From a virus (lineage: Duplodnaviria > Heunggongvirae > Uroviricota > Caudoviricetes): a stretch of 46,505 bases of DNA. Position numbers and translations under genes: made by a program. The stretch lies in IMG/VR virus record IMGVR_UViG_2563366802_000006; one strand, written 5' to 3'. Positions 6,583-18,937 of the stretch are shown piece by piece; positions within the stretch are counted from its first letter, which is position 1; the number at the start of each line of letters is the position of its first letter. Below the pieces are notes generated by a model. It ran no database searches and was not told where the DNA came from. It was given only the letters and a program-made list of their open reading frames with translations.

Positions 6583-6715
6583 TTTTTGGGACTCCTGGCT
6601 GATTAAGTATGTCGATAAGGCGTTTCCATCCGTCACGTAATTTACGGGTGATTCGTTCAAGTAAAGATTCGGAAGGGCAGCCAGCAACAGGCCACCCTGC
6701 AATGGCATATTGCAT
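6551..6715 (-). CDS. cIII: cIII protease inhibitor
   Basis: Found by hand on the minus strand (below the 60-aa ORF-track cutoff): [54 protein letters not shown], 54 aa, matches lambda cIII. Confidence 0.85.
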   Translation of the reverse strand: MQYAIAGWPVAGCPSESLLERITRKLRDGWKRLIDILNQPGVPKNGSNTYGYPD

Positions 6716-6787
6716 GGTGTGCTCCTTATTTATACATAACGAAAAACGCCTCGAGTGAAGCGTTATTGGTATGCGGTAACGCCGCGC

Positions 6788-16123: not shown

Positions 16124-16486
16124 GTGAATACCTACAGCATCACATTACCCTGGCCTCCGAGCAATAATCGCTATTACCGCCATAATCGCGGGCGCACGCA
16201 CGTCAGCGCAGAGGGGCAGGCATACCGCGATAACGTCGCCCGAATCATTAAAAACGCAATGCTGGATATCGGCCTGGCTATGCCTGTGAAAATCCGCATT
16301 GAGTGCCACATGCCGGATCGCCGTCGCCGTGACCTGGATAATCTGCAAAAAGCCGCTTTTGACGCACTCACTAAAGCAGGTTTCTGGCTGGATGATGCTC
16401 AGGTCGTTGATTACCGCGTTGTGAAGATGCCTGTTACCAAAGGTGGGAGGCTGGAACTGACCATCACCGAAATGGGGAATGAATGA
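16124..16486 (+). CDS. rusA: RusA Holliday-junction resolvase
   Basis: 120-aa ORF matching DLP12 RusA ([23 protein letters not shown]...). Confidence 0.95.
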
Positions 16487-16708: not shown

Positions 16709-17092
16709 ATGCGTGATATTCAGATGGTTCTTGAGCGTTGGGGAGCGTGGGCGGCTAATAATCATGAAGATGTGACCTGGTCGTCCATTGCCGCCGGTTT
16801 TAAGGGATTAATTCCTTCAAAAGTAAAATCTCGCCCGCAATGTTGTGACGATGACGCGATGATCATTTGCGGGTGCATGGCCCGTCTGAAAAAGAACAAC
16901 AGCGATTTGCACGATTTATTAGTAGATTATTATGTAGTCGGTATGACATTCATGTCACTGGCAGGTAAGCATTGCTGCTCTGATGGTTATATCGGGAAAA
17001 GGTTACAAAAGGCTGAGGGCATAATTGAAGGGATGTTAATGGCATTAGATATCCGGTTAGAGATGGATATCGTTGTTAATAACTCTAATTAA
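16709..17092 (+). CDS. quuD: Late-gene antiterminator Q (phage 21/82-type, QuuD-like)
   Basis: Start at ATG 16709 ([22 protein letters not shown]...); matches DLP12 QuuD as I recall it. Confidence 0.9.
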
Positions 17093-17111
17093 TATGCCAA
17101 TTGTTTACTAA

Positions 17112-17281
17112 AAATTATTAAAAATGGGGCGTTGAGACGCCCCCAAAAATAAAGGGTAATATATAACAGAAGGTTTATATAGTTAGAAGCAAGGTTGTGC
17201 TTCTAAAGGAAGTGGCTTGAGGGAGCCACTTATATGTTGGGGAGGCAACGCCTCCCGCAACATATCTTTTTCGTAATCAGA
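17112..17281 (-). ncRNA. ipeX: Candidate IpeX-like small RNA: multi-hairpin 3' region of the porin gene ending in a terminator
   Basis: Four consecutive minus-strand stem-loops downstream of the nmpC stop, the last (GGGGGCGTCTCAACGCCCC) followed by a T-run; the DLP12 sRNA IpeX is, to my recollection, derived from this nmpC-quuD interval. Confidence 0.4.
17232..17277 (+). terminator. tR'-like rho-independent terminator downstream of Q
   Basis: Long perfect stem ATATGTTGGGGAGGC-AACG-CCTCCCGCAACATAT followed by CTTTTTCG. Confidence 0.75.
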
Positions 17282-18364
17282 TTAGAACTGGTAAACCAGA
17301 CCTACAGCAACGATGTCATCAGTATCAATACCAGCTGTTTTGGTAAACTTACTATCGTCAATTAAGTTGATTTTGTAATCAACAAAAGTGGACATGTTTT
17401 TATTAAAGTAGTAAGTAGCACCGACATCGACATACTTGACTAAGTCTCGGTCACCATGAACACCAAGGTCTTTACCTTTTGACTGAAGGTAAGCAACAGA
17501 TGGGCGCAGACCGAAGTCAAACTGATATTGTGCTACTGCTTCAAAGTTTTGTGCTTTGTTTGCAATATGGTTATTACCAAAAACGGTCATATTCTGAGTT
17601 TCAGAATATGTGGTAGCCAGATAGATATTGTTCGCATCATATTTCAGGCCTGCAGCCCATACTTCCGCATTTTTGCCGGAGGCATTGAATTTGCTCTTAC
17701 CATAGGCGACCTGACCGTCAGTGCGATCTGATTTAGCATAGGTTGCACCCACGCCGAATCCTTCATACTCATAAGTAGTGGAGAAACCGAAACCATCACC
17801 ATTGGCTTCAGTTACGTCAGTGCGGTCATTTTTACCCTGATACTGAGCAGCAAAGTTCAGGCCATCGACCAGACCAAAGAAGTCGTTGTTACGATAAGTT
17901 GCAACACCAGTAGTGCGACCAGTCATGAACACATCTGTTTGGGTCCAGGTATCACCACCGAATTCTGGCAGGACGTCAGTCCACGCACCGATGTCGTATG
18001 CTACACCGTAGTTACGGCCGTAATCGATTGAGCCGTAATCACCAAATTTCAGGCCTGCAAATGCAAGACGGGTTTTGTCTTTGGAAGAACCTTGAGATTC
18101 AGCGCGGTTGCCTTTGAATTCATATTCCCACTGACCGAAACCAGTCAGTTGATCGTTGATTTGGGTTTCACCTTTGAAGCCAAGACGGGCATAAGTAGTA
18201 TCACCATCATCTGCATCATTAGAGGAGAAGTAGTGCTTAGCATTAACTTTCCCGTACAGATCCAGCTTGTTACTGTCTTTATTATAAATTTCAGCTGCCT
18301 GAGCAGACATCGCCATCAGTACTGATGCAGCTACAGCAGAAATTGCCACTGTTAATTTTTTCAT
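17282..18364 (-). CDS. nmpC: Outer-membrane porin, OmpC/OmpF/PhoE family (NmpC-like), apparently intact
   Basis: 360-aa ORF with signal peptide [23 protein letters not shown] and C-terminal ...VAVGLVYQF; located between Q and the holin as in DLP12. Confidence 0.93.
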
Positions 18365-18792
18365 CGTGAGCCCTTTTTTTTGAACTATTATTAAAAAATG
18401 ATGTCACTGCGCGATAAATATTCATCTAATCAATGTGATTATTTCAAGATGTAAGTTTTGGTTTCTCGTTTAATTTGTGAAGTAGATCTCTATTTTTATC
18501 TGAACTTTTTTCTATCGAATCCTATTCATGGCTCTTGGCTGAATAAAAATAAATCTATTAGCCAATTTATATTAATGGCTGTTATTTATAAGTGCTCTAT
18601 AATTTGAAGGTTCAATTTAAATTGGCTAAAAATAACGCTGGAAATTATTTGTTGGTTATTTGTTGAGATTTGCTTATGTATTTGTAGTGGTGTTTTCAAT
18701 ACTCGGTAGCATTCTCGCAAATATCATTTAGTGGTTTACGTACGTAAAAAATTGGTTATGCTGTTAAGAGTGGTTACTTCGTCACACAGCTT

Positions 18793-18826
18793 AAACCCGC
18801 CGTCGAGCGGGTTTTTCCATTTTTTG
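18793..18826 (+). terminator. Rho-independent terminator candidate about 110 bp upstream of the holin gene
   Basis: Hairpin AAACCCGCCGTCGAGCGGGTTT followed by TTCCATTTTTT on the + strand. Confidence 0.5.
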
Positions 18827-18937
18827 AGTCTCGATATTAGCTGATAACCCAATACCTGAGTTATTCACTGACTCCGAGTCTGTTACGTTTCGTAGTATTC
18901 CCTCAATTTACACCCGCTTTGTCTGCGAGGTGGGGTT

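Follow-up and report, generated by a model that had tools for sequence, protein, structure and literature searches.

The closest described systems to the locus presented here are the small RNA IpeX of the Escherichia coli K-12 prophage DLP12 and of phage PA-2, the porin regulators MicC and MicF, and the RNAs StxS of the Stx phages and 6S of lambda, which have the neighbourhood after the antiterminator gene Q in common with it. IpeX of DLP12 is 167 nt long, is made within a porin transcript and is then processed (PMC12197685), and it represses both ompC and ompF (PMC5069750, PMC3333887, PMC7177473). It has been called Hfq-independent (PMC8313858), and Hfq was needed for some of its targets (PMC5069750). 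The supplementary table of PMC8313858 places ipeX of MG1655 at 574365-574531 on the reverse strand, with a length of 167 nt. StxS has a length of 258 nt, extends from PR' to tR' and has a site for RNase E at +173, within the motif GU/AUU (PMC7547250).

The window, by which we mean the whole stretch of 46,505 nucleotides that was analysed (IMG/VR record IMGVR_UViG_2563366802_000006), is a lambdoid prophage. Its sole Rfam match at gathering level is Lambda_thermo, the cIII thermoregulator, at 6670-6728 on the minus strand (88.5 bits, full length). The region around Q contains the following features:

16124-16486, rusA
16709-17092, plus strand, Q antiterminator gene of the QuuD type, Q21/933W family, 127 aa (Pfam PF06530, E 8.5e-54)
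17093-17281, spacer between Q and the porin gene, 189 bp
17118-17284, minus strand, ipeX, 167-nt small RNA that is the 3´ UTR of the porin gene (100% identity to K-12 DLP12 and mapped MG1655 coordinates)
17282-18364, minus strand, intact Lc/NmpC-type porin gene, 360 aa (Pfam Porin_1, E 1.9e-151; annotated lc in PA-2)
from 18938, holin and endolysin genes, after a 573-bp spacer beyond the porin gene

The porin gene is convergent to Q. The Q protein is approximately 79-82% identical to Q of Stx phages (144 aa) and shows a distant match to the Q21 structures 6jnx and 6p18.

The preliminary description had suggested an IpeX-like RNA on one strand of the spacer, and alignment to ipeX of DLP12 bore this out with 100% identity. 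The segment 17080-17300 (221 nt) recurs without a single difference in many E. coli genomes and in the phages PA-2 and 434B. In K-12 strains it spans the interval from quuD to nmpC of DLP12, in PA-2 (J02580) it follows the porin gene lc, and in 434B it is part of the segment derived from DLP12. With the ends of quuD at 574339 and of nmpC at 574529 in NC_000913.3, K-12 coordinates are converted to those of the window by an offset of 557247; thus, the published ipeX coordinates correspond to 17284→17118 on the minus strand, which is the porin strand. As annotated, IpeX starts with the U of the porin stop codon, and its 3´ end lies in the U-run after the last hairpin. Sequence, position 3´ of the stop codon of an nmpC/lc-type porin gene, strand, terminator and the length of 167 nt are all the same as in K-12 DLP12 and PA-2. 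The porin gene is intact here as it is in PA-2, whereas K-12 nmpC is interrupted by IS5 58 nt before its stop (L001 2592-3786); there is no other difference. With identical sequences, the spacer can hardly encode anything but the already described IpeX of a DLP12/PA-2-type lambdoid prophage, an element that is already known. A search against Rfam 15 yielded no ipeX match at the gathering or E<=10 thresholds and returned chance matches only (for example RsaOG, 19 bits). Rfam appears to contain no IpeX family, thus this result says nothing against the assignment.

The search for secondary structure confirmed that the multi-hairpin interval is real. The minus strand from 17284 to 17093 folds with -65.1 kcal/mol, compared to -34.5 +/- 3.8 kcal/mol for 200 dinucleotide shuffles (z -8.0; none of the 200 was as good). 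The plus strand of the spacer also folds well (-65.5 kcal/mol versus -41.9 for shuffled sequences, z -5.5), because the hairpins are palindromes. On the minus strand, four stable hairpins and a weak one (H4) were found together with an intrinsic terminator; all are predicted folds:

17232-17265, minus strand, hairpin H1, 15 bp with one bulge, -22.2 kcal/mol
17210-17231, minus strand, hairpin H2, -10.4 kcal/mol, kept in the divergent copies L170, L105 and L171
17183-17206, minus strand, hairpin H3, -9.6 kcal/mol, stem kept and loop variable in L105 and L170
17160-17181, minus strand, hairpin H4, weak, all-A·U, -2.1 kcal/mol, absent in common variants
17126-17143, minus strand, hairpin H5, 7 bp, -12.5 kcal/mol, followed by AUUUUUAAUAAUUUUU
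17118-17143, minus strand, intrinsic terminator of IpeX and the porin gene (H5 and U-tail), called by the terminator scan

The earlier claim of four consecutive minus-strand stem-loops ending in a hairpin plus T-run was accurate, with H1, H2, H3 and H5 as the stable ones. IpeX consists of three stable 5´ hairpins, a weakly structured A/U-rich stretch of about 40 nt and a terminator hairpin. The terminator scan called the latter as a Rho-independent terminator at the IpeX 3´ end on the minus strand, composed of GGGGCGTCTCAACGCCCC and ATTTTTAATA; this terminator (17143-17126 plus U-run) is reached 164 nt beyond the porin stop codon. Every divergent copy, down to 88% identity, is predicted to form H1, H2, H3 and H5, and H4 is missing from the commonest alternative allele. 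Substitutions in the stems of 32 distinct variants were classified by the G·U/A·C asymmetry as minus-only (six), plus-only (five), neither (seven) or compensatory (one). These counts do not single out one strand as the target of structural selection; because the family is this shallow (at least 88% identity), it yields no usable covariation signal.

The porin gene is probably transcribed from its own promoter, and its 3´ UTR would run to the H5 terminator and yield the 167-nt IpeX. No promoter-like site was found on the minus strand from the porin stop to 17600, which fits co-transcription of IpeX with the porin gene.

Of 5426 complete E. coli genomes, 2510 contain the ipeX interval. The RefSeq records among the matches listed, including the copy of NC_000913.3 analysed, show no annotated RNA gene at this place. 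All 80 IMG/VR loci that were anchored on Q contain the spacer, 94-100% identical and in 29 distinct variants, as well as the porin gene. Since Q, spacer and porin gene are near-identical in them, these loci could not show the sequence after Q without a porin gene, and Q relatives of that kind were obtained from a protein search of a phage database. A scan anchored on porin genes, with one genome per species, yielded two species with an ipeX homologue, E. coli (L087) and E. albertii (L105, 88%); in this sample none was present after the chromosomal OmpD/NmpC-like porin genes of Salmonella, Citrobacter, Enterobacter, Klebsiella, Serratia and others. Among the copies from E. coli, the most divergent one (90%) is that of strain VTB97074v (L170 1-1682), in which the porin gene and ipeX adjoin ybcM with no Q or nin between them. 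In strain JB2 the ipeX spacer is divided by ISKpn26 behind its position 64 (L172 1501-1564); taken together with the IS5 in K-12 nmpC, IS5-family elements have struck the small porin/ipeX region at least twice.

A block homologous to the late promoter PR' of Stx phages was found on the far side of the porin gene:

18735-18828, plus strand, PR' homologue, identified by aligning it to the sequence that directly follows Q in Stx2/Stx1 phages; located between the porin start and the holin gene
18735-18740, plus strand, -35 element TTTACG
18757-18762, plus strand, -10 element TATGCT
near 18769, plus strand, predicted transcription start
18793-18814, plus strand, hairpin followed by T-runs, called as a terminator by the scan

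The block comprises TTTACG, CGTAAAAA, a -10 element, TAAGAGTGGTTAC and the hairpin AACCCGCCG…CGGGTTTTT, and it is present at the equivalent place in K-12 DLP12 and in PA-2. The PR' start of the Stx phages was back-calculated from the 258-nt StxS and its RNase E site at +173. In the Stx2 II phage (L084) the GUAUU at 2628-2632 and the terminator end near 2714 both put +1 at about 2457, directly after Q, with TTTACG as -35 and TATCAT as -10 element. The 3´ end of Q in Stx phages overlaps the -35 element of PR' (L084 2378-2435). Homology of our window to the Stx phages ends at Q codon ~126 and resumes at 18730. Since the Stx PR' block is found at 18735-18828, a porin/ipeX cassette (~17087-18727, about 1.64 kb) has been inserted between Q and PR'. 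Judged by this alignment, the predicted tR'-type leader of the prophage is located at ~18769-18828, about 1.5 kb further on, and not in the Q–porin spacer. IpeX shares the neighbourhood after Q with StxS and lambda 6S RNA and the Q family with the Stx phages that encode StxS; it differs from these RNAs in being located on the opposite strand and having no PR', and the homologue of the StxS 5´ region is found here at 18735-18828.

The strong hairpin of this block, with U7, recurs in the Stx phages, in which it occupies approximately +27 to +56 of the PR' transcript (L084 2423-2510), yet the StxS precursor is 258 nt long. In phage Lambda_ev087 (L085 2879-3035), with a Q that is 89% identical, a different reversed cargo gene follows Q, the lipocalin gene blc; between the two lie TGtTAGAAT, which is similar to an extended -10 element, and a terminator that resembles tR' of Stx phages (GCCAGCCTCCCCAAAGGCTGG plus T8). 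Behind Q genes of this family there seems to be a hot spot at which morons insert. A PR' of the phage 82 type, in which an extended -10-like pause element is followed by GCC (PMC5001585), was also considered, with chance-level matches only and none near Q; the phage 82 pattern is the wrong model, since Q belongs here to the Q21/933W Pfam family and not to the 82 type.

According to published work, IpeX lowers the synthesis of OmpC and OmpF post-transcriptionally, and we compared it with the K-12 leaders of ompC, ompF and ompA. Whole-length RNAduplex calculations against 150-nt leaders produced meaningless end-to-end duplexes and were replaced by windowed duplexes, evaluated against a genomic background of 36,112 windows of 60 nt from 78 Enterobacteriaceae loci paired with IpeX nt 100-140. 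The pairing segment proposed from this is the following:

17146-17180, minus strand, A/U-rich stretch, IpeX nt 105-139, proposed seed; weakly structured, overlapping H4, antisense to ompC -32 to -2 and partly to the ompF Shine-Dalgarno sequence

The duplex of IpeX with ompC has 27 bp and -26.7 kcal/mol, and none of the 36,112 background windows was as good. It is composed of 15 bp with one G·U between IpeX nt 110-124 (AACCUUCUGUUAUAU) and ompC AUAUAACAGAGGGUU (-21 to -7), covering the Shine-Dalgarno sequence GAGGG, a 9-bp helix between IpeX nt 130-138 (CCUUUAUUU) and ompC AAAUAAAGG just upstream, and a further 3-bp helix downstream. With ompF, IpeX forms 10 + 5 bp over the Shine-Dalgarno sequence (-18.6 kcal/mol), which is in the top 0.7% of the background and not above mononucleotide shuffles of IpeX (13/60 as good). 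The duplex with ompA, which is reportedly unaffected by IpeX, reaches -9.6 kcal/mol, the 36th percentile of the background. The computed order ompC >> ompF >> ompA is the same as that of the reported effects on OmpC, OmpF and OmpA. The leader of the phage porin gene itself paired with IpeX no better than shuffles did.

The pairing segment lies in the only part of IpeX that is predicted to be substantially unpaired, with high unpaired probability at nt 111-118 and 126-135, and part of the seed lies inside the weak hairpin H4 in the allele of our window. An accessible IpeX region listed in PMC8313858 (128-142) overlaps it. The core of the seed shows no change in any of the 83 Q-anchored loci, nor in the E. 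coli copies L087, L170 and L171 or in that of E. albertii (L105), whereas the hairpin loops drift; IpeX nt 112-120 read CCUUCUGUU. A locus set collected later was anchored on this core and is therefore biased by construction, and it was left out as evidence for invariance. The ompC leader is at least 99% identical in 5338 of 5371 E. coli genomes. On the plus strand, 17146-17176 (AAATAAAGGGTAATATATAACAGAAGGTT) is a near-copy of the ompC leader AAATAAAGGC-ATATAACAGAGGGTT (-31 to -7) with a 4-nt insertion. This resemblance suggests that the IpeX seed may have arisen from an inverted fragment of a porin leader.

Tentatively, we favour a reading of these computed duplexes as those of a classical antisense RNA that would pair through nt 105-139 over the Shine-Dalgarno sequence of ompC and, more weakly, of ompF. 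IpeX would then occlude ribosome binding on ompC, and less extensively on ompF, in the manner of MicC and MicF, and would leave the unmatched leader of the phage porin gene alone. With MicC and MicF it would share imperfect antisense pairing over the Shine-Dalgarno sequence of porin mRNAs, and IpeX and these RNAs are all linked to a porin gene. In contrast to them, IpeX is unrelated in sequence, is the 3´ UTR of a phage porin gene and not a free-standing gene, and the segment predicted to pair lies within the RNA, shortly before the terminator, and not at the 5´ end. The abstract of the 2006 IpeX report is said to describe an Hfq-independent effect on ompC and an Hfq-dependent effect on ompF; such a difference would agree with a predicted duplex that is long for ompC and short for ompF.

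It might also be possible, and was the proposal of the original authors, that the action of IpeX involves no base pairing and that IpeX titrates Hfq or some other factor, for instance, or works indirectly by way of envelope stress. Castillo-Keller et al. reportedly found no complementarity in 2006, and the ompC effect was reportedly independent of Hfq. A review states that complementarity alone does not explain the effect (PMC12197685), and the ompF duplex is no better than those of IpeX shuffles. However, we consider this explanation unlikely: a 27-bp duplex that is extreme compared to the background covers the ompC Shine-Dalgarno sequence, the IpeX segment and the ompC leader are both invariant, and the non-target ompA shows nothing of the kind. 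Still less probable is that the spacer merely represents the back-to-back terminators of the convergent genes Q and porin, that it has no natural role in trans and that the phenotype is a multicopy effect. ipeX was reportedly found by Castillo-Keller et al. in 2006 as a multicopy suppressor, each strand has a terminator-like hairpin at its far end of the spacer, and qPCR in clinical isolates showed no major role of ipeX in OmpC levels (PMC7177473). However, two terminators need about 60 nt and not 189 nt with three additional conserved hairpins, nothing varies between H3 and the terminator while the loops drift, and the match of this segment to the ompC leader beats every background window. 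[quoted passage not shown]

The plus strand of the spacer had been described beforehand as containing a terminator like lambda tR'. The hairpin exists: the palindrome of H1 at 17232-17265 (-20.8 kcal/mol) is followed by CTTTTTC (to 17272), and it resembles an intrinsic terminator after Q. Its role as a tR' leader is not supported. As in lambda, a PR' located just after Q would have to produce a short plus-strand RNA that stops at 17232-17277 unless Q modifies the RNA polymerase, and a stable hairpin with a T-run 140-180 nt past the Q stop, as well as the location of PR' directly after Q in lambda and the Stx phages, would agree with this. However, the scan of 17093-17281 found no sigma-70-like promoter on the plus strand, and the PR'-homologous block of the Stx phages, with -35, -10, start, initially transcribed region and hairpin plus T-run, lies past the porin gene at 18735-18828. 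For the lysis operon of DLP12, the regulatory region under the control of Q, RpoE and Hha has likewise been placed upstream of essD (PMC7918800). The T-run, T5 here, has only four T in 34 of 83 related loci; the terminator scan skipped the hairpin because its stem contains a one-base bulge. A tR' in the spacer is thus highly improbable. The plus-strand hairpin with its short T-run is a mirror of H1 and would at most end unmodified transcription leaving Q and thereby shield the porin gene from antisense read-through. What the comparison clarifies is the arrangement in this phage family, with Q on one side of the porin cassette and PR' on the other.

Recognising ipeX in this prophage adds nothing new to the biology, since it is an ordinary known element. 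It does show that automated annotation misses a phage-borne regulator of two major host porins, and OmpC and OmpF affect antibiotic permeability and serve as phage receptors. The pairing with ompC was either overlooked or has already been noted; we found no statement of it in a literature search that did not cover the original 2006 paper or the 2006 reviews. If unpublished, the computed duplex is a modest lead that bears on a 20-year-old mechanistic question and, if true, antisense pairing would overturn the "pairing-independent mechanism" attached to IpeX since 2006. In PA-2 lysogens Lc takes the place of the host porins OmpC and OmpF, and OmpC is the reported receptor of PA-2; in that case, superinfection exclusion would be a process to which IpeX contributes.
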